The position numbers were made by a program, and so were the translations under genes. The notes under the pieces are model-generated. The model made no database searches. It saw only the letters and a program-made list of their open reading frames with translations, and was not told the origin of the DNA. Below, piece after piece: positions 744 through 44,109 of a stretch of 64,000 nt of DNA (position 1 is its first letter; each line of letters opens with the position of its first letter). The DNA comes from Chromatiales bacterium (GTDB lineage: Bacteria; Pseudomonadota; Gammaproteobacteria; JAHELT01), in NCBI GenBank assembly GCA_024644045.1, contig JAHELT010000005.1:8149-72148 (forward strand), in the 5' to 3' direction.

Positions 744-1436
744 ATGGCACGGATCGCACGTGTTGTTATTCCCGGCTACCCGCATCACGTCACACAACGC
801 GGTAATCGCCGGCAGAAAGTCTTTTTCGATCCGTCGGACTACCGCACCTACCTGGATCTCGTCGCGGAAGGATTCCGGCAGGCTCGCGCCAAGTGCTGGG
901 CGTATTGCCTGATGCCCGATCACGTGCATCTGGTGCTCGTCCCCGAGTCACCCGACGGATTGCGTCGAGCGCTCGCCGAGCCGCACCGGCTCTACACGCG
1001 GGAAGTGAATGCCCGGCAAGGGTGGCGCGGCCACCTCTGGCAGGAACGCTTCCACTCTTTCCCGATGGACGAAACCTACCTGTTGTCCTGCGTACGTTAC
1101 GTGGAACGCAGCCCCGTCAGGGCCGGACTGGTATCACGTCCGCAGGAATGGCAGTGGTCGAGCGCGCGCGCGCGCCTGCTCAGCCTCGATGATCCGCTGG
1201 TCTCGCCGGCGCCAATGCTCGACCGCATAGACGACTGGTCAGCCTACCTCGCGACGGACAGCGAATCGCGCGTGCAGGACGCATTGCAGTGTCACGCGCT
1301 ATCCGGACGGCCACTCGGGTCCGAACGCTTCCTGGACACGGCCGAGCAGGTTACCGGCAGGTTGCTGCGCCCGCAGAAACCGGGCAGGAAACCGCGCACC
1401 AAAAAGACGTCGAGTGAAAGCGTACCGCGCCTGTGA
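744..1436 (+). CDS. REP-associated tyrosine transposase (RAYT; IS200/IS605-like Y1 HUH transposase)
   Basis: 230-aa ORF: MARIARVVIPGYPHHVTQRGNRRQ...MPDHVHLVLVP (HxH HUH motif)...catalytic-Tyr region YVERSPVRAGLV. The stop lies 8 nt from the 3' end of a convergent tRNA-like gene. Confidence 0.85.
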   Translation: MARIARVVIPGYPHHVTQRGNRRQKVFFDPSDYRTYLDLVAEGFRQARAKCWAYCLMPDHVHLVLVPESPDGLRRALAEPHRLYTREVNARQGWRGHLWQERFHSFPMDETYLLSCVRYVERSPVRAGLVSRPQEWQWSSARARLLSLDDPLVSPAPMLDRIDDWSAYLATDSESRVQDALQCHALSGRPLGSERFLDTAEQVTGRLLRPQKPGRKPRTKKTSSESVPRL

Positions 1437-1443
1437 GGCGAGA

Positions 1444-1551
1444 ATGGTAGGCGCGACAGGAGTCGAACCTGCGTTCCCCGTTGCGCCGTAACGGCGTTCT
1501 TTCTCAACCGCCGTCACGGGGTAACGGTGCTCTGCCACTGAGCTACGCGCC
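1444..1551 (-). tRNA. tRNA-like gene with an aberrant, ~33-nt expanded anticodon region (possible pseudo-tRNA or tRNA with insertion)
   Basis: The reverse complement reads AGGCGCG-TA-GCTC-AGTGGCA-GAGC-A-[CCGTT-ACCCCGT-GACGG-CGGTTGAGAAAGAACG-CCGTT-ACGGCGC-AACGG]-GGAAC-GCAGG-TTCGACT-CCTGT-CGCGCCT-A-CCA. It has a perfect 7-bp acceptor stem, a canonical D arm, a T arm with TTCGA loop and an encoded CCA. It carries two anticodon-arm copies (loops ACCCCGT and ACGGCGC, both lacking U33) and is 108 nt long. Confidence 0.5.
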
Positions 1552-1706
1552 TATGTCGTTCTTCGCACCCGGAATGGATTGGGACTCTAGCGTGTTTACC
1601 CTATCCTCTATGCAATGATCGTGCGGAGTTGCCACACCTGAACCGATTCAACGACTTGGCGTAGCCGGCCCGCTGCGATCCGGCGGCGAGGCGTCAAGAA
1701 TCCCGA

Positions 1707-4700
1707 CTATTCCGACAGTATTTCGTTAACCGCTGCCCAGGTCTCGTCAACCCAGCCGGCGACGCCGGCGGCTTCGCGCAGGGCGGCGACCGAAAGACCG
1801 GTCTCTCGCGGCTCGAGCGCCGGGGCCCAGAAGGCAAGCTGCGCGACATAGAAGTCGGTTCCCCCCGAACCGATGAGGACCAGGGCCTCCCCGAAACGCC
1901 CGGCGCGGGCGAGCCCTTCCGCCAGGACGTTGTAGCGCGCACGGCTGCGGCGCGACTCTTCGAGCGCTTCGGCGAACAGCGATTCGGCCCACGGCGCCCC
2001 GGCGGGGAGCAGTTCGGCGGCTAGTATCGCGAACGCATCATGGCCCTTACCTTCGGCGTGAAGTTGCCGCGCGAGCGCCTCGGCAAGGGCGACGAGGTCC
2101 GGCGTGCGCCCGTCGCCGCTCACCGCCGCCGCACCCGCCAGCTCCGAGAGCGCCTGCAGACGCCACAGCGGCACTTCGATGCGCTCGGCGATCTCACGCG
2201 CCTGGTCGTACAGGCCGGCCCGCACCGCCGCCCTGGCGGTGCTCGCCAGCAACCTGGGGCGGGATTTGGGCTCATCCAGCGCATCGGCCGCGGCGGCGGC
2301 CTGCTCAAGGACCTGTTGCGCCGCCGCCGGCGCTGTCTCCGCCTGCCACGCTGCATAGTCCCGCAGCGCCATCACCCTGAGGACGGGGCTCTTGAGGTCC
2401 TCGATCCACCGGGGAATGTCCTCGCCCCGGCCGGCAGCGAGCATTGCCTGAACACTGGTCTCCGGCCGCCCGAGGTCGTACTCGAGGCGGTAGACGATCC
2501 TGCCCGCGAGGCCGAGCGCCGCATCGAGCCGTCCCGCGCTGGCGAAAGCAAGGGCCAGCGCGTGCTGCACCTGCTGCTTCCAGTAGAAAAACAGATCGGG
2601 GTCTTCGATAGCGGCGGTGTCATCGAGCAGTCCCTCGTCGATCCTTCGCATCGCATCGCCGTAGCGCAGCATGGCTTCGCGCTCCGACACCTCGGTAATG
2701 AGTTCAGCGATGCGCTGGGCGCGTCCAGGCTGCCCGGCATCGATGACCGCCTCGATGACCCGCTTCAGTACCTGGGTTCTGCGATTGCCGGGCCGGTGGG
2801 CGCGCGCTGCTTTCAGGGTCTTGTCAAACACCGGCGCCGCGGCGGGGTCTCTCCTGCGGGCGAGGTAGGTGGCCAGGGTGCGCAGCTCACGGACCCGGTG
2901 GCCGGTGGCCGGCACCGCCTCCGCGGCCCGGATGCAACGCTGGAGCACCTCTTCGCGTTCCGGGCGCCCGTCCTCGTCCAGTGTCCTCAGCAGGTCGAAG
3001 AGCACACCCGATTGCGTGCTCTTGTTTTCAATCGTGGTTGTGGTATCCAGCGCATCCTCGAAGGTACGCGCGGCACCGGCATTGTCGCCGCCGGCGTGCA
3101 TTCCCCGGGAGACCCGGTATAGCGTCGCGATTCGATCGGTGATGGAGGCAATCTCGCCCGCGACCTCCAGAGCCTGCTCCGAATCACCCGAGGCGGCGAG
3201 CGCTTCGGCGAAGGCCGGCGCCGCACGCAGCGGGTCCGGCGTGTTGACGAATCGAAAACCGCCGCGTCCCTCCTCGCGCAGCACCGCGTTGTGCGCTTCG
3301 TTCTCTTGCATGAGCTGCTCGGCAACGGCACGGATACCTCTGGCGGCCTCGCGAAAGACCGGAACTGCCGCCGGGTCCGCGCTTTGCGCCATCGCGATCG
3401 CCAGCCCCTCCAGCGCTGCGGCGCGTCGCTCCGGATGCTCGATGTTGCGCGCAGCCGCGCGGGCACTGTCGAAAACCCGTGAGGCGTCGGGAAGACCAAG
3501 CCGGGCCAGCACGCCGGCAAGGTCCCTGAGCGCCTCGGCCTGCGCCATCGGTCTGTCACAGTCGAGGGCAGCGGCCTCGGCGTCCCTGAAACAACGGCCG
3601 CTCTCGGTGTCGCCCGCTTCGCGATGCCGTGTGGCGAGTTCGAGGAGCGCGGCCGAACGGTCCTCGGCATGGAAAAGCGACTGCGCTACCCGCCTCGCTT
3701 CCTCGAAAGCCCCGGCCGCCATGGCGGTCTTTACGAGCCCTCGTCCGGCATGGTGCCAGCTGTAGTCACGCGCGCGATCCAGTTCGGCAGCGGCATCGAG
3801 CGCCCGGTCCAGCAGTACTCTGCGGTGCTGCTTGGACGCGAGTGTGAGCGCGACGGCGACCAGCGCCTGACCGCGTACTCCGGCATCGGGTATCGCGTCG
3901 GCGATCTGTTCTGCGCGCTCGGGAGTCCCGGCCTGCGCCACGCGCGTTGCCAGATCGCACAGCGCTTCACTGCGTATGCGGGCGTGCGGGATCGCCTGGA
4001 TGTGCCGCTCGGCCGTGTCGTGATCGCCGGCTTCCGCTTGTGCTCGTGCAAACGCTGCGAGCGCTGCGGCCTGCTCCTTTGTCTGTGAGTGCTCGCGGTG
4101 GAGGCACGCAAGCTCGAGCGCTCTGTCACCGGAGCCGGCACGCACCAGCGCCTCGGCGGTGATTCCCAGAGCCTCTTCCCGGCGCGACGCATCCTGGATC
4201 GCGCGCGCGATCGATTCCGCCTGCTGCAGCCGGCCGTGGCGCACGTTGCACTGCACCAGGTTCACCTGTGCCGAGGCCCGCGAGTACTCGTTTCTTATGG
4301 CCGGCAGGCTCTCGGCCGCCCGGTCCAGGAGCCCGGCGTCCGCCTGACCCCGTTCCTCGAGGGCGGCGTACACCGCCAGCAGGCTTTCAACACGCGTGCC
4401 CGCGTCCAGGCGCAAGTGTGCATGGGCCTTGGCTTCCGCCGCTCTGTCGATCAGCACCAGGTTGACGAGGTCCTCATCCGTGTAGTCATCGAGCCGCCGC
4501 CCCACGACGACGCGGGCGGCCTGCACCCGCGTCAGGGCAACGAGGTCTTCGGGCCGTTGCTCGATAAGTGCCTGCCACACCAGCGTGACGTCCTCCAGGA
4601 ATCCGGAGTCGTTATAACCGCATTGCACGTAACGCCTGTCGAGCCACGCCTGGTCTATCTGGCCGACCGCCCGATCGAAATCACCGCACGCAAGCAGGTG

Positions 4701-5996
4701 CGCGATCAGGTGGCGAAGGCCGTACTCGTCGGGCGGTGCCTGAGTCTCCAGGGTCCGCTGCGTGTAATGATCGGCGATGCGCCGGTGCATTGCCGCCGCA
4801 TCGATGCGGTAGTCCAGGTTGGACGCGTCGTCGAAAAGAAAGCCGCGAAACGAGTCATGAAAGATCCGGAAGGGCCCGTCCGGGAAAGGACCGGAGAAGT
4901 ACTGTTTGAGCGCGCGCAGGGTGGGGCCGGAATCTCTGCCGCTGATAGCGTTCAGCTGCGCGAGGGTCAACCCGTCGTCCCGAGCAGCGGCTACGAGTCC
5001 CAGGACCGGTTTCAGCGATGCCTCCCAGCGCTCCTCGTCGTCGCCGACCTCGCGGGTCAGGAAGTCGTGGTACAGGCCGGGGAGGTCCGGCGGCAGCGCG
5101 ACCGCATCGAGCACTTCGGGCTGTTCGCTGGGGTGGCGCGCGAGCAGATCCTCAAGGACCAGACGCGCATAAAGAAAGTTACCGTCCGCCGCGTTCGCGA
5201 CGCGCGCCGCGACAGTGTCTCGAAGCGCCTCGTCCAGTTCACGCAGATACTCCCGCGCATACTGCTCCACGTCGCGCCGGTTGTCCGGGGCCTGTTCGAG
5301 GTCCAGCGGCTCGACCTCGCGAAACCAGCGCAGGATCCGCGGATCCGGGCGACTGCTCACCAGCAAGCGTACCTGCGCCGGAAGGTCGGTCAGCTTGGTC
5401 AGCAGACGAACGATAGTGGTGGCACCACTGTGGGTGGCCCCCTCGTCCAGCGAATCCACCAGGATCACCAGGTTACCGCAGCCCTGCCGCTCGCAGCACC
5501 GCTTCAGGGGCTCGACCAGAACGTCGCGGAAGGCCGCTTCGTCGTCGTTCGAGGCGACATGCAGGTGCTCGATATGCACCGCGACGGCCCGGCCGCCGGC
5601 ACCAACCTCACCCACCTTCTGCTCGACACGGATGTTGACGTGCGCCGAGACCGACTCGGCGAGCGACTCGGCAAATCCCTCTACCGAGTTGCTTAGCTGG
5701 TCTGCGACGCTTTCCAGGAAATCGCGCGGCGCAGTGCTCGAGGATTTTGCGACGCAGAAGTGCGATGCCTTGACGTAGCCGCGGATTCTGGCGAGTTGAT
5801 CGCGCGGCAGGCTGTCTGCCGGCGCCGGGCCCGCCCCCGAGAGCCACGCCATGAGCAGGCTTTTGCCCGCGCCGGGTGGACCCGTGAGCAGAAACATCCG
5901 GCGCTCGGAACGCTCGATCCAGTCGAGCAGCGGCGGAAGCAGCCACTCGCGGCCGCGGAAGTGCTGTACGTTCTCCCTGAGGGGCGAAGGGATCAT
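1707..5996 (-). CDS. NACHT/STAND P-loop NTPase with long C-terminal TPR/HEAT-like repeat region (NLR-like; bNACHT/Avs-like architecture without N-terminal effector)
   Basis: 1429 aa. Walker A LLTGPPGAGKSLL sits 37 aa from Met. Walker B is NLVILVDSLDEG (NACHT-type D-x-h-D-E) and sensor-1-like motif is RLLVSSRPD. This is followed by ~1000 aa of Ala/Leu/Arg-rich helical repeats. An in-frame stop 12 codons upstream of the ATG rules out a longer N-terminus. Confidence 0.85.
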   Translation of the reverse strand: MIPSPLRENVQHFRGREWLLPPLLDWIERSERRMFLLTGPPGAGKSLLMAWLSGAGPAPADSLPRDQLARIRGYVKASHFCVAKSSSTAPRDFLESVADQLSNSVEGFAESLAESVSAHVNIRVEQKVGEVGAGGRAVAVHIEHLHVASNDDEAAFRDVLVEPLKRCCERQGCGNLVILVDSLDEGATHSGATTIVRLLTKLTDLPAQVRLLVSSRPDPRILRWFREVEPLDLEQAPDNRRDVEQYAREYLRELDEALRDTVAARVANAADGNFLYARLVLEDLLARHPSEQPEVLDAVALPPDLPGLYHDFLTREVGDDEERWEASLKPVLGLVAAARDDGLTLAQLNAISGRDSGPTLRALKQYFSGPFPDGPFRIFHDSFRGFLFDDASNLDYRIDAAAMHRRIADHYTQRTLETQAPPDEYGLRHLIAHLLACGDFDRAVGQIDQAWLDRRYVQCGYNDSGFLEDVTLVWQALIEQRPEDLVALTRVQAARVVVGRRLDDYTDEDLVNLVLIDRAAEAKAHAHLRLDAGTRVESLLAVYAALEERGQADAGLLDRAAESLPAIRNEYSRASAQVNLVQCNVRHGRLQQAESIARAIQDASRREEALGITAEALVRAGSGDRALELACLHREHSQTKEQAAALAAFARAQAEAGDHDTAERHIQAIPHARIRSEALCDLATRVAQAGTPERAEQIADAIPDAGVRGQALVAVALTLASKQHRRVLLDRALDAAAELDRARDYSWHHAGRGLVKTAMAAGAFEEARRVAQSLFHAEDRSAALLELATRHREAGDTESGRCFRDAEAAALDCDRPMAQAEALRDLAGVLARLGLPDASRVFDSARAAARNIEHPERRAAALEGLAIAMAQSADPAAVPVFREAARGIRAVAEQLMQENEAHNAVLREEGRGGFRFVNTPDPLRAAPAFAEALAASGDSEQALEVAGEIASITDRIATLYRVSRGMHAGGDNAGAARTFEDALDTTTTIENKSTQSGVLFDLLRTLDEDGRPEREEVLQRCIRAAEAVPATGHRVRELRTLATYLARRRDPAAAPVFDKTLKAARAHRPGNRRTQVLKRVIEAVIDAGQPGRAQRIAELITEVSEREAMLRYGDAMRRIDEGLLDDTAAIEDPDLFFYWKQQVQHALALAFASAGRLDAALGLAGRIVYRLEYDLGRPETSVQAMLAAGRGEDIPRWIEDLKSPVLRVMALRDYAAWQAETAPAAAQQVLEQAAAAADALDEPKSRPRLLASTARAAVRAGLYDQAREIAERIEVPLWRLQALSELAGAAAVSGDGRTPDLVALAEALARQLHAEGKGHDAFAILAAELLPAGAPWAESLFAEALEESRRSRARYNVLAEGLARAGRFGEALVLIGSGGTDFYVAQLAFWAPALEPRETGLSVAALREAAGVAGWVDETWAAVNEILSE

Positions 5997-6075
5997 GTCA
6001 GAGCAGACTGACCACTTATGGGTGACTTTGTGTCATCGAACGACGGTATTGCCGACCGCGCCGTACGCAGCAGGA

Positions 6076-6519
6076 CTAGCCGATGGTTTTTCCGTCGAAG
6101 CCCGTGAGGTCCTTCGCCTCGTCCACTTCCTGGGTAACATCGACCTCGCCGCTCTTCAGTGATTCGACCCGGACGCCGGTGACATGCTCCGCGACTTTGA
6201 TTTTCTGGATAACCCTTATCTTCGGCCCCAGGTCGTCGAGCAGGGTTCGCACCTCCGCGGCGAATGCCGGGTCGACTTCGAGGTTCGCTCGGACAATGTC
6301 GGCGACGGCGGATGCATACCGCTTCGGGTGACGCTGAAAAAGTTCCAACCCCGCCTCGGCTTCTCTGTCACCCGTCCAGCGCTTCCTGAGCACGGCCAGG
6401 AGATCGCCTGCCTTACCGGCCGCGGCTTCCCCTGCCTGCTTTGCGAACGCCTCCGCGCCGATGCTGACGAACGGCGCTGCGACACTGACCACGCTGGCTG
6501 CGACGGCGGCAAAATCCAT
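6076..6519 (-). CDS. Hypothetical 147-aa protein, same-strand partner directly upstream of the NACHT NTPase; no recognisable domain
   Basis: The ORF track gives 168 aa. I start it at the internal ATG (MDFAAVAASVVSVAAPFVSIGAEAF...), which has a strong RBS (GAGGAG N7 ATG). N-terminal ~25 aa are hydrophobic, followed by a charged region. The gap to the NTPase start is 80 nt. Confidence 0.6.
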   Translation of the reverse strand: MDFAAVAASVVSVAAPFVSIGAEAFAKQAGEAAAGKAGDLLAVLRKRWTGDREAEAGLELFQRHPKRYASAVADIVRANLEVDPAFAAEVRTLLDDLGPKIRVIQKIKVAEHVTGVRVESLKSGEVDVTQEVDEAKDLTGFDGKTIG

Positions 6520-6681
6520 GGCCTTGCTCCTCAGGTTTCGGGATAGACGCGGGCGCCGTCCGGCCGCTCGCCGGCTGGGCAACTGACCGTCAGTCTACCT
6601 GCTCGGCGAGGCCGGAATCTATAACGCAGCGGGTGTCTGCCCGGCGCCGCCCTCAGGGATCGACTGCAGCGTGCTTCACGT

Positions 6682-9412: not shown

Positions 9413-9546
9413 TGTTCGATTTTCTTGCCCCGATCACGGCCGCTGGTCAGTTCAGGCCCAGCGATTTCTCGACTATATGCCGTATCCGGGACCGGGCACA
9501 AACCTAATGATTTGCACTATTCGTTCAAATAATCTAAACATTAGAG

Positions 9547-10437
9547 ATGCGCTTCCTAGCCTACGACAGCCTGCGATTGTTCACCGTGGTCGCGCGCCAT
9601 CTGAGCTATACCGCCGCGGCCGTCGAACTCAATCTGAGCAAAGGCGCGGTCAGCTATCGGATCGCGCGACTCGAGCACGGGCTCGGTTTCAAGTTGTTCC
9701 ACCGCCAAAATCGCAGGATCTCGCTCACCGCGAAAGGGAAACGGCTGCTGAGCAATGCACGCACGGCTTTCGAGGAGCTGGAGACGGAGATCGAGACCCT
9801 GCGCCGTGACGGCCGCAGCGTGGTCACGATCGGTATGTCGACCTATTTCGCTTCGCGCTGGCTTTCGCCGCGGCTGATGACTTTCACGAGCCGGTTTCCG
9901 GCTGTCGGACTTCGGCTGCAACCCACGGTCGGTCCGGTCGACTTGCGCACGCAGGATATCGACATGGTAATCCGTTGGGGTAACGGTAAGTGGACCGACC
10001 TCGAGATCGAACGACTGTTCGACTGCCCTGCCTTCCCGACAGCGGGCGCTGCGATGGCACGCGCCGTCGAGAAATCCGGTCTGACGTCTGCATTGGAGAA
10101 GGCCACGCTGCTGCACGACTACGAAGGAAGCAACGCCTGGCGGAACTGGTTTCACGTGGCCGGCATGCCGTACCCCTCACAGCGCGAGGATCTCGTGATC
10201 CCTGATCCGAACGTGCGCGTACAGGCGGTCATCGACGGGCAGGGCGTCGCGTTGAATGACGCGCTGGTAAATCCCGAGCTGGAGGCCGGCAGGCTGTTTC
10301 GGATTTCCGAAGTTCGCCTGACAGATTACGGTTACTTCCTCGCCTTTCCCCGGCAGGCGCTCGACAACCCGGCGTTGAAACAGTTTCTCGACTGGATCAC
10401 CCAGGAGGCGCGCGGCGAGAAAGACACGTCATCCTGA
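9547..10437 (+). CDS. LysR-family transcriptional regulator (divergent from mttB-like gene)
   Basis: N-terminal HTH region LRLFTVVARHLSYTAAAVELNLSKGAVSYRIARLE, 296 aa. Confidence 0.9.
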   Translation: MRFLAYDSLRLFTVVARHLSYTAAAVELNLSKGAVSYRIARLEHGLGFKLFHRQNRRISLTAKGKRLLSNARTAFEELETEIETLRRDGRSVVTIGMSTYFASRWLSPRLMTFTSRFPAVGLRLQPTVGPVDLRTQDIDMVIRWGNGKWTDLEIERLFDCPAFPTAGAAMARAVEKSGLTSALEKATLLHDYEGSNAWRNWFHVAGMPYPSQREDLVIPDPNVRVQAVIDGQGVALNDALVNPELEAGRLFRISEVRLTDYGYFLAFPRQALDNPALKQFLDWITQEARGEKDTSS

Positions 10438-10616
10438 AGCGCGCGGGAAATCGAGTGCGATAGCCTGATTGTCGACAGCGGATCGGCTGCACGCCGACGA
10501 ACCGCTGCAAGGCAGACAGACGTAACAAATGTTGACAATGGGCTGGGGGGAAACTGCTAATCTGCCCAGCCGGTTTTTTCGCTTCCGGCGACCGCCAACC
10601 AAAGGAGAGATAAACA

Positions 10617-10823
10617 ATGTCTGTTGCACGAGTCACCGAGATCATAGCGCAATCGTCCAAGGGCTTCGACGAAGCGCTGCACGATGGTATCAAGCGCGCC
10701 AACAAGACCCTGCGCAATGTCAAATCGGTGTGGATCAAAGATCAAAGCGTCGACCTGAACAAGAAAGGCGCCATCGACACGTACCGCGTGGCCTTGAAAG
10801 TAACTTTCGTTCTGGAGGGCTGA
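10617..10823 (+). CDS. Dodecin-family flavin-binding protein
   Basis: 68 aa (MSVARVTEIIAQSSKGFDEALHDG...YRVALKVTFVLEG); size and pattern are typical of dodecin. Confidence 0.75.
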   Translation: MSVARVTEIIAQSSKGFDEALHDGIKRANKTLRNVKSVWIKDQSVDLNKKGAIDTYRVALKVTFVLEG

Positions 10824-11375
10824 GTGATGGAGCTGCTGGACGCCATTCTGGGCGCGGGCGGCGGTCGGGTGCTGCAACAGCTCTCCGGCCAGCACGGGCT
10901 CAGCACCGACCAGACCCGCAGCGCGCTGGAGCAACTCGTGCCCAACCTGGCCAACGGGGTCAATCGCAACGTAAGCCAGGCGGGTGGTCTGGAAAGCCTG
11001 CTGGGCGCGCTGCAGAAAGGCCGCCACGGCGACTACCTGGAACGGCCCGAAAAGCTGACGGACGAAGCCACGCGCCAGGATGGTAACAACATCCTCGGTC
11101 ATCTGCTCGGGAGCAAAGAGGAAAGCCGGCGCGTCGCGGGCGAAGCGGCACAGAACACGGGCCTCGACGCCGGCATTCTGAAAAGCCTGCTGCCGGTTGC
11201 AGCGACCCTGGTCATGGGTGCCCTGAGCAAGCAGACCGCCGCCAACGACAACCCGCTCGGCAACCTGCTCGGCGGGCCAGGCGATCTGCTCAGCGGCCTG
11301 CTTGGCGGTGGCGGCGCGGGCAAGAGCACCGGCACCGACGTGGTCAGCATGCTGGGACGTTTTCTGAGCAAGTAA
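10824..11375 (+). CDS. DUF937 (YidB-like) family protein
   Basis: 183 aa, Gly/Leu-rich (MELLDAILGAGGG...LLGGLLGGGG); the start overlaps the dodecin stop. Confidence 0.65.
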   Translation: MMELLDAILGAGGGRVLQQLSGQHGLSTDQTRSALEQLVPNLANGVNRNVSQAGGLESLLGALQKGRHGDYLERPEKLTDEATRQDGNNILGHLLGSKEESRRVAGEAAQNTGLDAGILKSLLPVAATLVMGALSKQTAANDNPLGNLLGGPGDLLSGLLGGGGAGKSTGTDVVSMLGRFLSK

Positions 11376-11611
11376 CCGGCCGGCCGGCGTTGCGGATCAC
11401 GCGAACTGCGAATTCGCGCCCGACGACCGGACCTTAATCCTTCTCAAACCACGAGCACGAGCACGACCGGGCGCCAGGCGTCCGGTCGGCCTGTCGCCGC
11501 GTGGTCCGCCCGTAAGCTCTAACAATTGTTCACAGAATGCGTCTTTACTGCGGCGTGCCAAACCCCGATTCTCACGTCCCGACAACACGAACCGCCACCT
11601 GAGGAATCTTC

Positions 11612-11911
11612 ATGGATATCGTATCGATTGGCGTCAGTCTGCTCAGCGGCGCCGTAGGCGGCAACCTCGCCGGGAACCTGATGAAAAACCTGAGCCTCGG
11701 CACCCTGGGCAATTCGCTGGTCGGCATTCTCGGCGGCGGCATCGGCGGGCAGATACTGGGCGCGCTGGGCGTCGCTGCCGGCGGCGCCGGCGGTGAAACG
11801 GTGGATGTGGGCGCGCTGATCGGCAGTGTGGCATCCGGCGGCGTTGGCGGCGGTGTCCTGCTGGCGGTGATCGGTGCCGTCAAGCGCGTGCTGGCGCCCA
11901 GCGGAAACTGA
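11612..11911 (+). CDS. Glycine-zipper small membrane protein (GlsB/YeaQ/YmgE-like)
   Basis: 99 aa with GxxxG-rich helices and LLAVIGAVKRVL near the C-terminus. RBS GAGGAA precedes the ATG. Confidence 0.4.
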   Translation: MDIVSIGVSLLSGAVGGNLAGNLMKNLSLGTLGNSLVGILGGGIGGQILGALGVAAGGAGGETVDVGALIGSVASGGVGGGVLLAVIGAVKRVLAPSGN

Positions 11912-11999
11912 TTCAGGCCGCCGGCGCTAGTTTCTGTCATCCGCACACGGTGCCGCGCCGCGGCGACAACATCAAAGCAAAACCCGGACCTCTATTTCA

Positions 12000-12284
12000 A
12001 TGCTTTGCGCTTTAATCGTACTGGCGATGGCGCTCGGCGGATTGATGAGCTGGCTGTTGCGGCCGGTTGCGGCCGACGCCTCGAAGGCAGCCGCCGCCGA
12101 CATCGCCACCATCATGCAACTGCGCACCGAGCTCACCGATACGCGGCGCCGGTGCATGGAATGCGAGGCGCAGAATACCCGTCTGCGCTACGAGCTGAAC
12201 ACGCACTTGGCGTTCCCGGGTGGTACGACGCGGCACGCTGACAGCACCGTGCGGGAGAAAACAAGGCCGGGCACCCCGGTCTGA
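12000..12284 (+). CDS. Hypothetical small membrane protein
   Basis: 94 aa with an N-terminal TM helix and no homology recognised. Weak call. Confidence 0.2.
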   Translation: MLCALIVLAMALGGLMSWLLRPVAADASKAAAADIATIMQLRTELTDTRRRCMECEAQNTRLRYELNTHLAFPGGTTRHADSTVREKTRPGTPV

Positions 12285-12371
12285 CAACGGTTTCTGGTGC
12301 GGCGTCAGAGTGCAGACTGCGTCGCGCCCTTTTTTCACCCGTTCACCGCCGCCGGCGCGAAACCTCTTCCC

Positions 12372-13415
12372 TTAGAACAGGAACACGCCCTTCCCCGTGG
12401 TCTGCTTGTCGAACAGCGCGTAGGCTTCCTCGGCCTGCTCGAGCGAGTACCGGTGGGTGAAGATGCGCTCCAGCTGCACCCCGCGCTCGGCAATGAAGCG
12501 CGCGCACTCCGCCTGGCCGAGGCTCGAGAAGGTCCACGAGCCGATTATCGTGAGCTGCTTACGGATCATGTCGTTCGAGACATCGAGGGTTACCGTGTTG
12601 CCCTCGCCCACGAAACACACCGTGCCCCAGGTGCGGGTCGCGTGCACGGCCTGAAGGCGCGCCTCGGGTGAGCCGCTGCAGTCGATGGCGAGCTCGACAC
12701 CGCGTCCCCGGGTAGCCGCGCGAATCGCCTCGACCGGGTCTCCGTCAGCGGCGTTGATAATCGCGTCAGCGCCGAACGACGCTGCGATGGCGAGGCGCTC
12801 GCTCGAGATATCCAGTGCGATCACGCGCGCGCCCATCGCGTTCGCGAGCGTCACCATGCTCAAGCCGACCGGCCCCTGACCGAACACCGCGAGCGTGTCG
12901 CGCGCCGTCAGGCCCATCCGCTGGATCGCCCCGAATGCCGTGCCGGTGCCGCAGGAAACGGCCGAACCCTCCGCGAAGGACAGCGCCTCGGGAAGCGGCA
13001 CCAGCGTGCTCACCGGGACGGCCATGTACGGCGCATGCGCGCCGTGACCGGTCGCACCGTAGACGACGAAACCCTCAGGGCACAACTGCTGCCAGCCGGA
13101 GCGGCAGTGGGGGCACACGCCGCAACCCTTGTAATGGTGGCACATCACCCGCGCTCCATCGGGTGCAAGCGTTTCAGACACGTTCGCCCCCCGCGCCACC
13201 ACGACGCCGCAGGGCTCGTGCCCGCCGATGATCGGGCTGCCGTCACCGCCCAGCCCCAGCGACTTCGCGCCCTCCGCGGCCCGGTAGAAGTGCAGGTCGC
13301 TCCCGCACATTCCGGACGCCTTGATCTCGAGCACCACCTCGTCGGGCCCGGGCGACGGATCGGGAAACTCCATCAGCTCGAGCTGCCGGCTGCCTTTGAA
13401 AACCACGCCTTTCAC
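12372..13415 (-). CDS. Zinc-dependent alcohol dehydrogenase (MDR family)
   Basis: GHEPCGVV and CGVCPHC zinc motifs plus a GxGxxG Rossmann motif (VFGQGPVGL). GTG start with RBS AGGGGGA. Confidence 0.9.
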   Translation of the reverse strand: MKGVVFKGSRQLELMEFPDPSPGPDEVVLEIKASGMCGSDLHFYRAAEGAKSLGLGGDGSPIIGGHEPCGVVVARGANVSETLAPDGARVMCHHYKGCGVCPHCRSGWQQLCPEGFVVYGATGHGAHAPYMAVPVSTLVPLPEALSFAEGSAVSCGTGTAFGAIQRMGLTARDTLAVFGQGPVGLSMVTLANAMGARVIALDISSERLAIAASFGADAIINAADGDPVEAIRAATRGRGVELAIDCSGSPEARLQAVHATRTWGTVCFVGEGNTVTLDVSNDMIRKQLTIIGSWTFSSLGQAECARFIAERGVQLERIFTHRYSLEQAEEAYALFDKQTTGKGVFLF

Positions 13416-13448
13416 TGCGCTCCCCCTGACGTCATCGGCCGACGGCCA

Positions 13449-14954
13449 TCAGCCGACCACGAACGGGTTGGCCACCTCTTCGGCGGTGGAAATCCACACG
13501 CTCTTGGTCTGCAGGTACTCGCGGATCGCCTCCTGGCCGAGCTCGCGCCCGAGGCCGCTTCGTTTGTAACCGCCGAAGGGCGTGGTGTAGCTCAGCGCGC
13601 GGTAGGTGTTCACCCACACCGTGCCCGCCTGCAGCCGCCGGGCCATGGTGAAGGCGCGGCGGATGTTCTCCGTCCACACGCCGGCCGCCAGGCCGAACAC
13701 CACATCGTTGCCGATCGCTACCGCCTCGTCGTCGTCGGTGAAAGGGATCACGGAGAGCACCGGGCCGAACACCTCCTCCTGGGCGATGCGCATGTCGTTG
13801 CGCACCCCGGTAAAAATCGTCGGCTCGACGAACCAGCCGTCGCCGCACTCCGGGCGTTGGGCTTTACCGCCGCCGAGCACGGTTTGCGCGCCCTCACCCT
13901 TGGCGACATCGATGTAACCGAGCACCTTCTTGTACTGGGGCAGGTTGGTCACCGGACCGACCTGGGTGTCGAGCTCCATCGGGTTGCCCATCCTGGCAGT
14001 GCGGGCGAAGTCGACCAGCCGCTCGACGAACTCGTCATGCACGCTGCGCTGCACCAGCAGCCGCGAGCCGGCCACGCAGGTCTGCCCGGTCGCGGCGAAG
14101 ATACCGGAAACAGCGCCCTTCACCGCGTTGTCCATGTTGGCGTCCGCGAACACGATGTTGGGCGACTTGCCGCCGAGTTCCAGGCTCACGCGCTTGATGT
14201 CCCTGGCAGCCTCGGAGTAGATGTGCGCGCCGGTGCGGTCGGAACCGGTGAAGGCCACCTTGCGCACCAGGGGATGCTCGATGAGGGGCTGACCGGCTTC
14301 CGGGCCGAAGCCGGTGACGACGTTCACGACGCCTTTGGGGAAACCCGCCTGCTCGATCAGCTTGACGAACTCGAGCGTCGACGCCGAGGTGTACTCCGAG
14401 GGCTTCACCACCACGGTGTTACCGGCTGCCAGCGCGGGCGCGAGCTTCCAGGCCGTCAGCAGCAGCGGCGAGTTCCACGGGATGATCGCCGCGCAGACCC
14501 CCAGGGGCTCATGCAGCGTGTAGGTGAAAGCGGCCTTGTCGTTGGGAATAACCGCGCCTTCGATCTTGTCGGCGAGACCGGCGAAGTAGTGGTAGAAGCT
14601 GGGCGCGTACCGGAGCTGCGCCGCCATTTCGCTCAGCAGCTTGCCGTTGTCCTTCACCTCGAGCTCGCCCAGGCGCTCGGCGTTCTCGGCCACCAGGTCG
14701 CCGAGTCTGCGCAACAGCGCGCCGCGCTGGCTGGCGTTCAGCGCGGGCCACGGGCCGCTCGTGAAAGCGCGATCAGCCGCCTTTACCGCACGGTCCGCGT
14801 CCTCGGCGTTGCCGCGCGCGATGAGGCACCAGGGCTTCGCGGTATAGGGGTCGAAACTCTCGAACCAGTCGCCCGACGCCGAGTCTACGAACTCGCCGTC
14901 GATGTACATTTTAAGCTTGGGAAACGTGTCCCGCGCTTTCATCGGCGTTGCCAT
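13449..14954 (-). CDS. NAD(P)-dependent aldehyde dehydrogenase
   Basis: ALDH motifs ELGGKSP and FTGS...CVAG are present. Start set at MATPMK with RBS GGAGA; the ORF track's longer start was rejected. Confidence 0.9.
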   Translation of the reverse strand: MATPMKARDTFPKLKMYIDGEFVDSASGDWFESFDPYTAKPWCLIARGNAEDADRAVKAADRAFTSGPWPALNASQRGALLRRLGDLVAENAERLGELEVKDNGKLLSEMAAQLRYAPSFYHYFAGLADKIEGAVIPNDKAAFTYTLHEPLGVCAAIIPWNSPLLLTAWKLAPALAAGNTVVVKPSEYTSASTLEFVKLIEQAGFPKGVVNVVTGFGPEAGQPLIEHPLVRKVAFTGSDRTGAHIYSEAARDIKRVSLELGGKSPNIVFADANMDNAVKGAVSGIFAATGQTCVAGSRLLVQRSVHDEFVERLVDFARTARMGNPMELDTQVGPVTNLPQYKKVLGYIDVAKGEGAQTVLGGGKAQRPECGDGWFVEPTIFTGVRNDMRIAQEEVFGPVLSVIPFTDDDEAVAIGNDVVFGLAAGVWTENIRRAFTMARRLQAGTVWVNTYRALSYTTPFGGYKRSGLGRELGQEAIREYLQTKSVWISTAEEVANPFVVG

Positions 14955-15208
14955 GGGGGGTATCTCCTGTCGCATCCTCAGCGTCGCGGCAACGAGGGAT
15001 CCACGTGATCCCACGGCTGCTTGAACTGCGAATATACAACCATCTGGGGTTGGTAGGCACTCGGATCGTCGAGCGTCGCGGCATGCAAGACGAGATACTC
15101 GGGTACGCGGAAGAGGTCTTCAGAACCGGGCTGCCGCAGTCGGCGCAGAAGCCGCTGTTGACCGTGTTCCTGACGGGTGCCGGAACGAATCCGCTCAGGG
15201 GCCACCAA

Positions 15209-15409
15209 TCACGCTATTCGCCTTCCGGACTGCAGCCCGCTGCGCCCCAGCCCGCCGGTCAGCAGGTCGTCGCTCACACCGTCATAGACGTTGTGGACAA
15301 CCGGCCCATACACGAAGTGCGGCGGGCGCGGTGCCGAAAGCGCAGCGGGTGAGGTGAGCGTAGCCAACAGGCCACCGGTCGAAAGGATGCTGATGAGCGT
15401 TGTTTTCAT
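15209..15409 (-). CDS. Small secreted protein (66 aa); possibly an N-terminal remnant of a 3-hydroxybutyrate-oligomer-hydrolase-like gene
   Basis: Start MKTTLISILSTGGLLATLTSPAALSA (signal peptide) with a strong RBS (GGAGGAG). YDGVSDDLLTGGLG resembles the N-terminus of 3HB-oligomer hydrolases, whose remaining ~600 aa are absent here. Confidence 0.4.
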   Translation of the reverse strand: MKTTLISILSTGGLLATLTSPAALSAPRPPHFVYGPVVHNVYDGVSDDLLTGGLGRSGLQSGRRIA

Positions 15410-15515
15410 AATCTCCTCCTGAGGTTGGGACCGGCCCGGTGGTAGCACGGATCGTAGAAGCACCGGTGCCTTCACAGATGGACATAGTTTGAGTTCACAG
15501 CCGAAATTATCGAGT

Positions 15516-16307
15516 TCAATTGTTTCTGTTGTCCTGCAGCAACAGCATGCTTCCCTGGTCGACCTGAATGAGTCCGCGTTTCGGCCGGTCGAGGTCGATG
15601 ATGATGAACACGATCATCGCGATCAGGAAAGCCACCATGATCGTCGGCGCCACCACCCGTCGACCGCTCAATCCGCTCGAGTAACCCAGCATACTGCCGG
15701 AGGCGATAAACACGATAAACAGCAGCACAAGCACGACTTCCGGCACGTGCATCTGAAGCAACGCATTTCTTTTCCCCTGGCTGTCGATAAGCTCATTGAG
15801 CGATGTGATGAACGCCCCGGTCGTCACCGGGCGTGGATCATCCTGCGCCGCCATTACCGCCAGTGACCAGAGCGCGTTCTGGAGCCGTGAAATCTGACCG
15901 TCGTATTGCTTTCGTTCTTCACGCCTCGTCAGGTCCAGTTTACCGATAGCAATACGCAGAGCGATGTACTCTTCAAGCAGACGTACGGCTTTTTCCCGGT
16001 ATTGTTCGGGCAGCAATTGAACGCGCAGTTCGACGGTGCCGATTGCATTTGCTTCGGCAATCAAGGCCTGGCTGCGTCCGTCAAATCGCTGCATCGACAT
16101 GCTGAACGTGAAGCCGAGCAGCAGTGCCAGCAGGCCCAGTATGCTCGCCTGAATGGCGCCGGTCAGTGTCTTGATTTCGGTATCGGTGCTGCCCTGGACG
16201 AAACGGCCGATCCGGAACCCGATCTCATTAGATACAACGAGTAGTCCAAATAGCGTCGCGGTGATCGCGATGCTGGAGAAGTCATACAGAAGCTGCTGCT
16301 GATCCAT
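15516..16307 (-). CDS. Membrane protein with two TM segments flanking a coiled-coil (DUF4239-like)
   Basis: 263 aa. Hydrophobic segments sit at the N-terminus and at ~aa 195-245, with a central charged helical region. Confidence 0.55.
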   Translation of the reverse strand: MDQQQLLYDFSSIAITATLFGLLVVSNEIGFRIGRFVQGSTDTEIKTLTGAIQASILGLLALLLGFTFSMSMQRFDGRSQALIAEANAIGTVELRVQLLPEQYREKAVRLLEEYIALRIAIGKLDLTRREERKQYDGQISRLQNALWSLAVMAAQDDPRPVTTGAFITSLNELIDSQGKRNALLQMHVPEVVLVLLFIVFIASGSMLGYSSGLSGRRVVAPTIMVAFLIAMIVFIIIDLDRPKRGLIQVDQGSMLLLQDNRNN

Positions 16308-16391
16308 AGTCCGTAAAATTCCTTGTGCGGCCCCAGGCGTCGGTCACGACGTACCGTTGGACAACCGTCCGGTCATCAACACAGGCTGATC

Positions 16392-16990
16392 TCATCGCAT
16401 CGGCTCGATGCGCTTGTCAGCCGCCAGCCTGTTCCTCGTCAACACATGGACAGACCATACAACGACGCCGGCACCCGCGAGGATCGCAATAACCAGCACT
16501 TCATAACGTTTCACATCACCAATGATGAGTTCGAGCGTGTGTCCGAAAAGATAGCCCAACGTGCCAATGACGGTCGCCCATGCAGCGGCACCGAGCGTGT
16601 TCAATACCAGGAAGCGGGACGGTGAAATACTCGAGGCGCCTATCAGGAACGGTGTTACCGTGCGCAGCCCATAGAGAAACCGGAAGCCCAGAACGAGCCA
16701 CAGCTGGTGGCGCTCCAGCAACCGGAACACTTTCTCCGATTCCGCTTTCCAGCCCCGCCGTTTTTCAAGCAATCCCTTACCCTTCACTCGACCGATATGG
16801 AAATACAGCTGGTCGCCGGCCAGCGTGCCCGGAAACGCGCACACTATGACCCAGGGCAATTCCAGGTAGCCTGGGCCGCGAAACCGGCAAGCACAAGGAT
16901 TGTTTCGCCCTCGAGGAAGGTACCGATGGCTATCGCCGCGTACCCGTACGTTGCTATCAGTTCTTCCAGCGGCCTGTCTCGATCCGGTTC
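16392..16990 (-). pseudogene. DedA/VTT-domain membrane protein gene disrupted by a 1-nt frameshift (and lacking a canonical start)
   Basis: The N-terminal DedA signature (PLEELIATYGYAAIAIGTFLEGETILVLAGFAAQA) sits in one frame and runs into a stop. It continues as GYLELPWVIVCAFPGTLAGDQLYFHIGRVKG... in the +1 frame, with the junction near 16863-16875. No ATG/GTG is found upstream. Confidence 0.5.
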
Positions 16991-42026: not shown

Positions 42027-43895
42027 TCAGCGAGCGCCCCACGACCGGGCCAACCGGTTGCGCCGGTAGAGCGCCAGCGCGAACAGCGCCACCAACGCGT
42101 ACCACCCGAACGCCGAAGCCACCTCCACCTGCACCCGCGCCGGTGCCGTCTGCGACTGTCCGGGAATCCGCACCACGATCTCGGTATTGCCTTCCTGCAG
42201 GCCGTTGACCGTGGTCTGCGAACGGCCCGCCGAGTCGGTCACGCCGCTGCCCGGATTGACGGTCGCCACGTTCGTGGCGGCGCTTGTATAACTGACCGCC
42301 TCATCCGCGAGACCCGCGCCGCCCTGGGTCACAGTCACCGTGATCACCGCGCTGTCGCCCTCGTCGAGCTCGAGCGAACCCGGCTCGACGCTCAGCAGCA
42401 CAGGCTGCGGTTGCGGCGGCTCGGGCGGCTCCGGTGGTTCGGGCACGACCCGGATGTCGGCATTCAGCAGCCCTGCACCGCAGTCTCTGGAGCACTGCTG
42501 TGACGAACGGGGGATGGCGTTGTCTACAATCAGCTGGCTCACCTGCTGCGGCGTCAGGCTGGCGTCCTGGGCGAGCAGCAGGGCGGCGACGCCGGCCACG
42601 TGCGGGCTGGCCATGGAGGTGCCGTTGAAAAAGGCAAAGCCGCCCTGCACCATGCTCAGCACGCCGTCGGGATTACCGTCGTTGTTGTCGTCGCGCTGGG
42701 TGTCGCCGCCGGGCGCCATGATTTCGACCGTGCTGCCGAAGTTGGAGTAGCGGCGCACGAGATGACCGCGGAAATCGCTGGCCGCAACGGTGATCACACC
42801 GTCGCAGCTCGCCGGCAACGAGTTGGCCGCGTCGGATGCATCGTTGCCGGCCGCAACCACCACCGTGACGCCGGCCGCGACCGCATCGTTGATTGCGGCC
42901 TGGGTCGATGGCGACGCACTGCACGGGGCGCCGGCACCCAGGCTCATGTTGATGACCCGCGCCGGATTGGGGTTGGCCGGCACACCCGGGACGGACAGAC
43001 CGGCCGCCCAGCGGATACCGTCGTTGATATCGCTGATACTGCCGCCGCACTTTCCGAGCACGCGCACCGCCTGCACACGACCGTTCCAGCTCACGCCGGC
43101 GACCCCGCTGGCGTTGTCGGTGCGGCCCACGCCGACCGTACCCGCGACGTGCGTCCCGTGCCAGCTGGAGTCCTGCGGCCGGCTGCCGGGGAAGCATTCG
43201 CCCGCCGCGATCGCGTCGCCCGGATCGGTCGGATCGCCGTCCCGGCCGTCGCCGTCGTTGGCGGTGAACGCGCTCGATATCATGTCGAACCCGCTCGCGA
43301 GATTCGGCGTGCCCACGATATCAGGATGATTCGGCAGAATACCGGTGTCCAGCACGGCGACGACGATCGCCGGATCGCCTGTCGTGATGTCCCAGGCCGC
43401 TGGCAGGTTGATCCCGCCGGGGGACTGCAGGTTGCCGCTGCCGTTGGTCTGGTAGTGCCACTGCACCGGGTAACCTGGATCGTTCGGCTCGCGCACGATG
43501 TTCACCAGGAAGTTGGGCTGCGCATACTCGACGTCTGCGCGCGCGCTCATTTCGCTCACCGCGTCGAGCACCGCGCTGTTCGCCTGCTGCGCGGTCATGG
43601 CGCTGATTGTGGCCGGCGGCAGGCGATAGATGTACTCGCCGCCCGAGGTCTGGGTGACGTGGCCCTCGAGTCCCTGGGCGCGTATCCGCGCCTCCGCCTC
43701 CGCGGTCTGCTGCCGGTACTTGACGATGACCTGGCCGGGCACGAAGCGCAGCGTCCCACCGCTGTTGAGCAGGGCCTGGCGCTCGGTGTCGGTCATCGGG
43801 ACGATGTCCAGGCCGGGCTGCTGCGCGAGTGCACAGGGCGCCCCGGCGATACTCAGCGCGACGGCAACGCGGCGCAGTAGCTTCGAATTCTGCAT
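42027..43895 (-). CDS. Secreted S8-family (subtilisin-like) serine peptidase with C-terminal Ig-like region and hydrophobic + basic C-terminal tail
   Basis: Signal peptide MQNSKLLRRVAVALSIAGAPCALA and RBS GGAGA. Catalytic triad regions are VAVLDTGI (Asp), HGTHVAGTV (His) and GTSMASPHVAG (Ser). C-terminus is ...SAFGWYALVALFALALYRRNRLARS, resembling a GlyGly-CTERM/PEP-CTERM-type sorting tail. Confidence 0.9.
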   Translation of the reverse strand: MQNSKLLRRVAVALSIAGAPCALAQQPGLDIVPMTDTERQALLNSGGTLRFVPGQVIVKYRQQTAEAEARIRAQGLEGHVTQTSGGEYIYRLPPATISAMTAQQANSAVLDAVSEMSARADVEYAQPNFLVNIVREPNDPGYPVQWHYQTNGSGNLQSPGGINLPAAWDITTGDPAIVVAVLDTGILPNHPDIVGTPNLASGFDMISSAFTANDGDGRDGDPTDPGDAIAAGECFPGSRPQDSSWHGTHVAGTVGVGRTDNASGVAGVSWNGRVQAVRVLGKCGGSISDINDGIRWAAGLSVPGVPANPNPARVINMSLGAGAPCSASPSTQAAINDAVAAGVTVVVAAGNDASDAANSLPASCDGVITVAASDFRGHLVRRYSNFGSTVEIMAPGGDTQRDDNNDGNPDGVLSMVQGGFAFFNGTSMASPHVAGVAALLLAQDASLTPQQVSQLIVDNAIPRSSQQCSRDCGAGLLNADIRVVPEPPEPPEPPQPQPVLLSVEPGSLELDEGDSAVITVTVTQGGAGLADEAVSYTSAATNVATVNPGSGVTDSAGRSQTTVNGLQEGNTEIVVRIPGQSQTAPARVQVEVASAFGWYALVALFALALYRRNRLARSWGAR

Positions 43896-44109
43896 AGTGA
43901 CTCTCCGTGTTCGATTCGGGGCAGGCGCACGCCGCCACGCGCGGCGGTTGCCGGGCACGCGGGTGCGCCATTGCGGGTTGTGGACTTTCGGTTACAGTAG
44001 CTCTGGTGGTACGCCGATACTAATACCGGAACCCGGAAAAGCAAACCCGGACACAGTGTGACAGGTGTTAATTCCCACATACTTGTCCCGCTCATCGGGT
44101 CAATTGATC

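Follow-up and report, generated by a model that had tools for sequence, protein, structure and literature searches.

A NACHT-type NTPase gene and a small Bell-domain gene in a Chromatiales bacterium: a candidate two-component cell-death module

A NACHT-type STAND NTPase which begins almost directly with its nucleotide-binding core raises the question of what it acts through and how it is coupled to that partner. The case considered here lies in a contig of a Chromatiales bacterium (JAHELT010000005.1, assembly GCA_024644045.1), of which a stretch of 64,000 nt was analysed (positions 8,149 to 72,148; hereafter the window, with coordinates counted from its first nucleotide). On the minus strand of the window, a gene for a protein of 147 aa lies upstream of a gene for an NLR-like NTPase of 1429 aa, with an intergenic gap of 79 nt. 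An earlier note, made from the sequence alone, had proposed these genes as an undescribed system of a sensor and a separate partner. The locus is probably a two-component NLR/Bell cell-death module, for which coupling through the C-terminal tail of the small protein and a repeat within the NACHT domain of the NTPase is proposed. This sensor and effector reading is favoured because a repeat sensor, an intact NACHT switch and a separate Bell effector with a portable tail are found together. By analogy, its role would most likely be abortive-infection defence.

The small protein and its Bell domain

The features of the small gene are as follows.

6076–6519, minus strand: gene for the 147-aa Bell-domain protein, a proposed membrane-targeting cell-death effector (open reading frame (ORF) with ribosome-binding site; stop codon included)
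6527–6532, minus strand: Shine-Dalgarno sequence GAGGAG, 7 nt 5' of the ATG at 6519 (read from the sequence)
6229–6519, minus strand: Bell domain, aa 1–97, with a hydrophobic N-terminal helix MDFAAVAASVVSVAAPFVSIGA and Asp at position 2 (AlphaFold2 (AF2) model; identity to Bell proteins)
6079–6228, minus strand: C-terminal tail, aa 98–147, with two pseudo-repeats, a proposed NLR-coupling module (hhalign; AF2)

The open frame of the small gene opens at a TTG codon (168 aa). Because GAGGAG sits 7 nt upstream of it, the ATG at 6519 is almost certainly the true start, giving 147 aa, and the separate same-strand gene with its own ribosome-binding site described in the earlier note is confirmed. A word-indexed search with the protein returned three relatives, each of 147 aa, and the four close orthologues are likewise all 147 aa long with dN/dS values of 0.25–0.49. 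In a profile search, 1.84 billion representatives yielded 604 family members at E ≤ 1e-3 and 223 at E ≤ 1e-10 (counted as cluster representatives at 50% identity), nearly all of 145–150 aa. The small ORF is thus conserved, as had been supposed.

A first AF2 model, built from four sequences, reached a predicted local distance difference test (pLDDT) score of only 53 and was superseded by a run with 100 sequences (mean pLDDT 84.8). In the latter, residues 1–97 are modelled at pLDDT >90 as six helices spanning residues 3–97, followed by a tail of two 19-residue strands (100–118 and 125–143) at pLDDT ~67–76; modelled alone, the tail forms a hairpin. The protein begins MDFAAV (family consensus MDP), and the mean Kyte-Doolittle hydropathy of its first 22 residues is 1.71. 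Bell domains have been characterised by a hydrophobic N-terminal helix, an acidic residue at position 2 or 3 and a bundle of about five helices (Dyrka et al., 2020; 10.1101/2020.01.06.895854), and in the small protein Asp2, a hydrophobic first helix and a predicted helical bundle were found.

A metagenome scan with the family alignment gave 76 loci, of which ~50 match residues 9–97 only, at 40–46% identity. The small proteins of these ~50 loci end AFDQRGQTVHG.QTNIAG and the adjoining NB-ARC protein starts FDQHGQKVIGQQINVAG, which is the arrangement of the canonical Bell/BASS pairs described by Dyrka et al. (10.1101/2020.01.06.895854). One such canonical Bell protein (locus L061; loci other than the window are given L numbers) is matched by the small protein of the window in BLASTP with E 6e-19. 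The N-terminal helical domain is accordingly assigned as a Bell domain by homology, the comparison being with the small proteins of motif-sharing pairs and not with the hidden Markov model (HMM) of Dyrka and coauthors. The earlier description of this protein as domain-less does not hold; it arose because Pfam contains no Bell model. No match to the small protein was obtained in Pfam, NCBIfam or PADLOC, and canonical Bell proteins are likewise unmatched in Pfam. The Pfam family HetE-N was weakly matched by 11 of 100 family members (best E 3.3e-5) and was set aside as not interpretable, a literature search for the name having given no relevant result.

The NLR-like NTPase

The features of the NTPase gene are as follows.

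1707–5996, minus strand: gene for the NACHT-type STAND NTPase, 1429 aa (ORF; stop codon included)
5859–5882, minus strand: Walker A motif (P-loop) GPPGAGKS, aa 39–46 (sequence motif)
5442–5471, minus strand: Walker B motif LVILVDSLDE, aa 176–185 (sequence motif)
1710–4646, minus strand: C-terminal helical-repeat region, ~980 aa, a PPR/TPR-like alpha-solenoid of ~35-residue helical hairpins (phmmer)

The assignment as a NACHT-type NTPase, made previously from these two motifs, was borne out. The protein scores above the cutoff for Pfam NPHP3_N (PF24883; 47.6 bits, cutoff 24.8) and below that for Pfam NACHT (PF05729; 20.5 bits, cutoff 26.7). Its Walker A fits the pattern GxxxxGK[ST], and DSLDE in its Walker B conforms to D[GAS]hDE, which Kibby et al. 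(10.1101/2022.07.19.500537) quote as the signature of NACHT, with D[AGS]LDE kept across the clade. No helix-turn-helix (HTH) or other output domain was detected in the NTPase by a Pfam scan. The closest match in a collection of species-representative genomes is 48% identical, and identical recorded sequences were found neither for the NTPase nor for the GcvT of the window.

The earlier note had also excluded a hidden N-terminal domain, and rightly so, because an in-frame TGA lies 13 codons upstream of the ATG of the NTPase with no other start codon in between, and the start position is shared by the orthologues of L001 and L003 (two metagenomic contigs). Since the P-loop lies at residues 39–71 in all homologues examined, the missing N-terminal effector is a trait of the whole clade.

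Of the TPR/HEAT-like repeats described previously, a helical-repeat solenoid of ~980 aa stands, but the C-terminal 979 aa matched no Pfam TPR model at E ≤ 0.01. A helical-hairpin solenoid is indicated because designed PPR/alpha-solenoid proteins were matched by phmmer (best E 3.5e-14). Homologues resemble the NTPase over the N-terminal ~30% only, the rest being WD40 or other repeats. The helical repeats are presumed to be the ligand sensor, variable among homologues.

Conservation and linkage of the gene pair

The two genes are adjacent in L001, beside mnmG, with identities of 63% for the small protein and 70% for the NTPase, and in L003 (76 and 84%). Among 21 metagenomic loci with a full-length member of the small-protein family, a homologous NTPase gene was found downstream in 17; one locus had no room for the test and three lacked the NTPase, so that at least 17 of 20 testable loci carry the pair, four of these 17 being near-identical copies. 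In 16 of the 17 the NTPase starts within ~100 nt, and gaps in relatives range from 6 to 100 nt. The pair also occurs in the genome loci L004, L008 and L009, with an NTPase ~45% identical to that of the window. Its neighbours elsewhere include genes for a serine recombinase, a tyrosine integrase, a group II intron reverse transcriptase, a TPR-CHAT protein and a Bro-N protein. The small gene accompanies this NTPase clade in differing contexts, which supports a conserved module of a sensor plus a separate partner, as proposed in the earlier note. As regards phage carriage, no relatives were found in IMG/VR.

A different pairing was seen in L043 (3009–5732, minus strand), where a Bell-family gene is divergently paired with a gene for an nSTAND1 NTPase outside the NACHT clade. 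The N-terminus of this nSTAND1 protein looked motif-like by eye and was rejected as such, the similarity not being significant (z 1.2, ~1 bit).

Effector tail repeats and the NACHT-internal motif

Dyrka et al. (10.1101/2020.01.06.895854) identified effector and NLR pairs by a shared motif of at least 15 aa with a score of at least 40. In the corresponding test the last 55 residues of the effector were locally aligned with the first 70 of the NLR. All 23 small-family pairs fell short (score 14–25, z at most 1.4), whereas ten canonical control pairs scored 43–79 (z 5.2–15.3). In the NLR of the window, only ~12 residues precede the core (FRGREW). A classical amyloid-motif pair was met in L027 (Actinoplanes; 9484–9831 and 9818–13837, the genes overlapping by 14 nt), where the C-terminus of a small transmembrane (TM) protein, GGQVVQAGRDVILPGR, matches the N-terminus of the NLR, GSVIMQAGRDVITGN.

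The features considered as an alternative means of coupling are as follows.

6151–6222, minus strand: pseudo-repeat R1 of the tail, aa 100–123 (hhalign)
6079–6147, minus strand: pseudo-repeat R2 of the tail, aa 125–147 (hhalign)
5562–5636, minus strand: internal motif NIRVEQKVGEVGAGGRAVAVHIEHL of the NTPase, aa 121–145, proposed NLR-side counterpart of the tail (profile-profile alignment)

R1 and R2 align with each other in hhalign with P 5.6e-6 and the consensus V.Q.i..a..VTG..i..(l/i)G. HMMs of the tail match NLRs of the clade at one consistent site, at about residues 120–150. When the Bell-tail profile was aligned with the NLR profile by hhalign, R2 fell on residues 121–145 with a score of 28.0 (P 1.9e-4), which is 7.5 standard deviations (sd) above 200 column-shuffled tail profiles (mean 11.4, sd 2.2, maximum 18.4). 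The motif is flanked by Walker A and Walker B, which are 137 aa apart in the NTPase of the window and 133–162 aa apart across the clade, compared with 87 aa in the related L027 NLR that has an N-terminal motif, so that the clade is ~45–50 residues longer here.

An HMM built from the NLR inserts only was then used against 4504 six-frame ORFs of the genome loci. Effector tails were found at 24–33 bits, with decoys (reversed or locally shuffled) reaching at most 12.2 bits. The matches include a TM protein encoded upstream of the NLR in L012, at its C-terminus (33.0 bits), a Zn-ribbon protein beside the L004 NLR (30.5 bits) and an L007 CHAT protease (24.2 bits); L010 has a fourth CHAT protein, which reached only 12.8 bits. 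With the tail HMM, the same L012 TM protein scored 35.7 bits, three CHAT proteases 19–25 bits and a 207-aa protein 17.3 bits, against at most 8.7 bits for reversed and shuffled decoys. These tail matches are at the C-termini of the CHAT, TM and 207-aa proteins, all of which adjoin NLRs of the clade, and the CHAT domains of all four CHAT proteins, which score 12.8–24.7 bits over the two HMMs, were verified by Pfam. Comparison of cognate tails and inserts gave z values of 8.7 (L004), 6.7 (L011), 4.0 (L010), 3.5 (L015) and 3.1 (another locus). A motif-bearing neighbour is present at 14 of ~17 testable NLR loci.

Judged by these profile matches, the effector tail is a portable module common to the Bell, CHAT and TM partners of one NLR clade. 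From the same sequence comparisons, the NACHT-internal repeat may be the receptor-side counterpart of the tail, exposed by oligomerisation, a proposal that comes close to an even chance without quite reaching it. The embedded beta-motif would then represent a new family of signalling motifs which wires an NLR clade to swappable Bell, CHAT, TM and Zn-ribbon effectors in Bacteria and Archaea.

Several observations weigh against this reading. The window's own tail and insert compare weakly (score 29, z 1.5, p ~0.1), and across Bell-family pairs the same comparison is not significant (z −1.0 to 3.0). The proposed link for the window pair is one of profiles and of transitivity through the CHAT and TM tails. 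In L005, L014 and L016, insert-bearing NLRs have no motif-bearing neighbour within 10 kb, and for this reason the insert may be structural. PADLOC-DB v2 has no system model for the NTPase, giving only P-loop-level noise (mad8, E 0.008), and neither defence genes nor an integrase were found beside the pair in the window.

The insignificant pairwise similarity in the Bell family and the inserts without a detectable partner, together with the folding of the isolated tail as a hairpin by AF2, would fit a module with the same parts and outcome but another coupling. In that case the tail would bind the helical repeats or the winged-helix region of the NLR or, as a variant, the NLR would keep the Bell protein inactive in the manner of a guard or antitoxin; the insert would be a clade-specific structural hairpin, and its likeness to the tail convergent beta-hairpin patterning. 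These alternatives are, even jointly, rather unlikely given the distance of the profile score from the shuffled nulls, the separation of effector tails from decoys by the insert-only HMM and the z values of several cognate pairs (3.5–8.7). The occurrence of the same tail on unrelated types of effector, which is how adaptor and signalling motifs behave, also argues for coupling through tail and insert.

Variants of the motif were observed in other loci. In L004, a Methanotrichaceae metagenome-assembled genome (MAG), the Zn-ribbon gene (3650–4273, minus strand) sits between the NLR gene and a Bell-family gene and its product carries an insert-like motif, LIQIEVTQNIGKANGRIVGVYIENVDG, near the N-terminus; the z value of 8.7 for this locus is that of the Zn-ribbon protein against the insert of the adjoining NLR. 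A Methylococcales MAG (JAQTPT010000009.1; L007 and L013) has three tandem clade NLR paralogues and a single tail-bearing CHAT protease. The metagenomic loci L035, L040 and L046 hold a sub-clade of partner NLRs with a doubled internal motif, e.g., IEVEQRIEQAGPGASVVGVKIDDL ... IRVQQKVTTLEGGMAGIEIARA, and a Walker A to B spacing of 151 aa.

Comparison with known systems

Because the small protein has a Bell domain, the window pair is placed, on sequence grounds, in the Bell/NLR class of Dyrka et al. (10.1101/2020.01.06.895854). As in the BASS1–10 pairs of that study, a small gene upstream of and collinear with that for the NLR encodes a Bell domain, homologous by sequence, whose N-terminus is hydrophobic and acidic, and a C-terminal tail prone to beta-structure; the NLR of such pairs is a NACHT or NB-ARC protein bearing TPR or WD repeats. 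Bell proteins with double repeats are likewise known. In contrast to those pairs, the window family lacks the N-terminal motif of the NLR and has a related motif inside the NACHT domain, the gap in the window is 79 nt where ≤10 bp or an overlap is typical, and the host is probably a proteobacterium. The module was thus undescribed only in part. The pair is conserved and its coupling without an N-terminal motif looks undescribed, but a Bell effector with an NLR is in general already known. In the papers that were searched, there was no description of this Bell subfamily, of a tail shared with CHAT and TM proteins or of a signalling-type motif inside a NACHT domain.

The Bab/Agp system of Escherichia coli ECOR25 likewise comprises a small Bell-related effector with a C-terminal amyloid motif and an adjacent large sensor that activates it, but the BASS11 motif is N-terminal there (10.1101/2024.11.07.622273). 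Activation of Bab, a protein of 109 aa, ends in membrane damage and abortive infection (Ibarlosa et al., 2024; 10.1101/2024.11.07.622273). Fold searches with the small protein did not recover the crystal structure of Bab. To our knowledge, Bab/Agp is the only related system so far demonstrated against phage.

In bacteria, Bell/NLR pairs correspond to the HET-S/NWD2 signalling of fungi and the RHIM signalling of animals. As in HET-S/NWD2 of Podospora anserina, where the effector is a helical membrane-targeting domain with two pseudo-repeats of ~21–23 residues (R1 and R2) and the NACHT receptor has one, two repeats in the window effector stand opposite one in the NTPase. However, R0 of NWD2 is an N-terminal tail whereas the window repeat is inserted between Walker A and Walker B, and the fungal system is eukaryotic with a HeLo domain only distantly related to Bell. 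The bNACHT and Avs proteins have in common with the window NTPase a NACHT module with the D[GAS]hDE Walker B and diversifying C-terminal repeat sensors; their effector is mostly an N-terminal fusion, while in the window it is a separate gene.

Proposed mechanism and significance

In the module as proposed, the C-terminal solenoid would recognise a trigger, which by analogy with NLR and Avs proteins is presumably a protein of a phage or of another invader. Recognition would license nucleotide-dependent oligomerisation of the NACHT domain, whose Walker A and B motifs are intact and whose activity is presumed. Oligomerisation would bring the single NACHT repeats (aa 121–145) together for pairing with the tails, their relationship being one of profiles and the mechanism a suggestion. 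The effector double repeat (aa 100–147) would then pair with them as beta-strands, possibly through amyloid-like templating. Once released, the hydrophobic N-terminal helix of the Bell domain could insert into the membrane and damage it, an activity suggested by Bab and HET-S.

The small protein is likely to be the effector. Its role as a membrane anchor, regulator or chaperone, with an output other than death such as stress signalling or kin recognition, is improbable. Fold searches with it were uninformative as to a relation with the HeLo, MLKL and CC pore-forming bundles, and the host is apparently a unicellular proteobacterium, where Bell/NLR pairs are reported to be rare (10.1101/2020.01.06.895854), both of which leave some room for such a role. 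However, its homology to Bell domains speaks for an effector, as does Bab, whose distantly related Bell-like domain was shown to execute abortive infection (10.1101/2024.11.07.622273). In related loci, moreover, the equivalent position is filled by effectors of typical kinds, namely CHAT proteases and TM proteins.

As a large Bell family pairs with a NACHT clade in the absence of a terminal motif, a considerable part of such systems escapes screens for motif pairs. If coupling does proceed as proposed, it would constitute a previously unrecognised form of signalling from NLR to effector, with a motif in the NTPase domain and not a terminal tail as the template or docking site. Were the internal insert a signalling surface, a nucleotide-driven conformational change would be directly coupled to template exposure, and the annotation of “effector-less” bacterial NLRs would change.

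Surroundings of the gene pair

Two features outside the module lie beyond the NTPase gene.

1445–1552, minus strand: tRNA-like gene (ARAGORN intron mode; Rfam 49.6 bits at 1448–1552)
744–1436, plus strand: gene like those of REP-associated tyrosine transposases (RAYT; Pfam Y1_Tnp above cutoff)

Both genes, reported previously as neighbours of the pair, were confirmed, but their presence is not enough to establish an integration site. The RAYT-like gene scores just under the cutoff for NCBIfam REP_Tyr_transpos (75.3 bits, cutoff 80). With default settings ARAGORN called no tRNA at the tRNA-like gene, and its call in intron mode is a tRNA-Gly(CCC) whose anticodon loop is interrupted after position 37 by an insertion of 33 nt. 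U33 is missing from the 7-nt loop (ACCCCGC), the CCA end is encoded, and the insertion lengthens the anticodon stem to a hairpin of 11 bp. Bacterial tRNAs are not expected to contain short insertions unless these are group I introns, so this is a pseudogene or an unusual RNA. The insertion was also considered as a REP element tied to the RAYT and rejected, there being no second copy in the window.

The integration hotspot claimed in the earlier note could not be upheld. Besides the aberrant tRNA-like gene, no integrase and no att-like direct repeats were found around the pair, and insertion cannot be demonstrated because in the nearest genomes sharing mttB-gcvT, which are Pseudomonadota MAGs, GcvT is the closest homologue and yet only 78% identical to that of the window. 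The AT-richer junction reported beside the pair is present as a dip in G+C content, although a slight one (0.59–0.61 compared with ~0.65–0.70 nearby). No promoter consensus was found for the pair, and seven terminator-like hairpins (~3 expected by chance) include none in the intergenic regions flanking it.

L104 and L106 keep the LysR-mttB-gcvT cassette, but other genes follow it and the Bell/NLR pair is missing. What follows gcvT is variable, consistent with the pair as an accessory module. That the NTPase is a housekeeping signalling STAND protein tied to the methylamine genes (mttB-gcvT), with the small ORF incidental, is very improbable. The pair, for all that it is co-oriented with and directly downstream of mttB-gcvT in the window and has the same junction in L002, is missing from these two cassettes and stands beside unrelated genes elsewhere; no HTH or other output domain was found in the NTPase, and the small gene is itself conserved and keeps its link to the NTPase.

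In L104, the closest cassette-sharing genome, a Roc-COR GTPase gene (14725–16464, minus strand) lies downstream of mttB-gcvT beside IS3-type transposase genes. Elsewhere in the window, a gene for a subtilisin-like S8 protease (42027–43958, minus strand) is divergent from a gene for a CDC48/FtsH-like AAA ATPase (44065–45588, plus strand). This ATPase weakly matches the anti-phage ATPase IteA and, with the S8 protease, may form a second conflict module.

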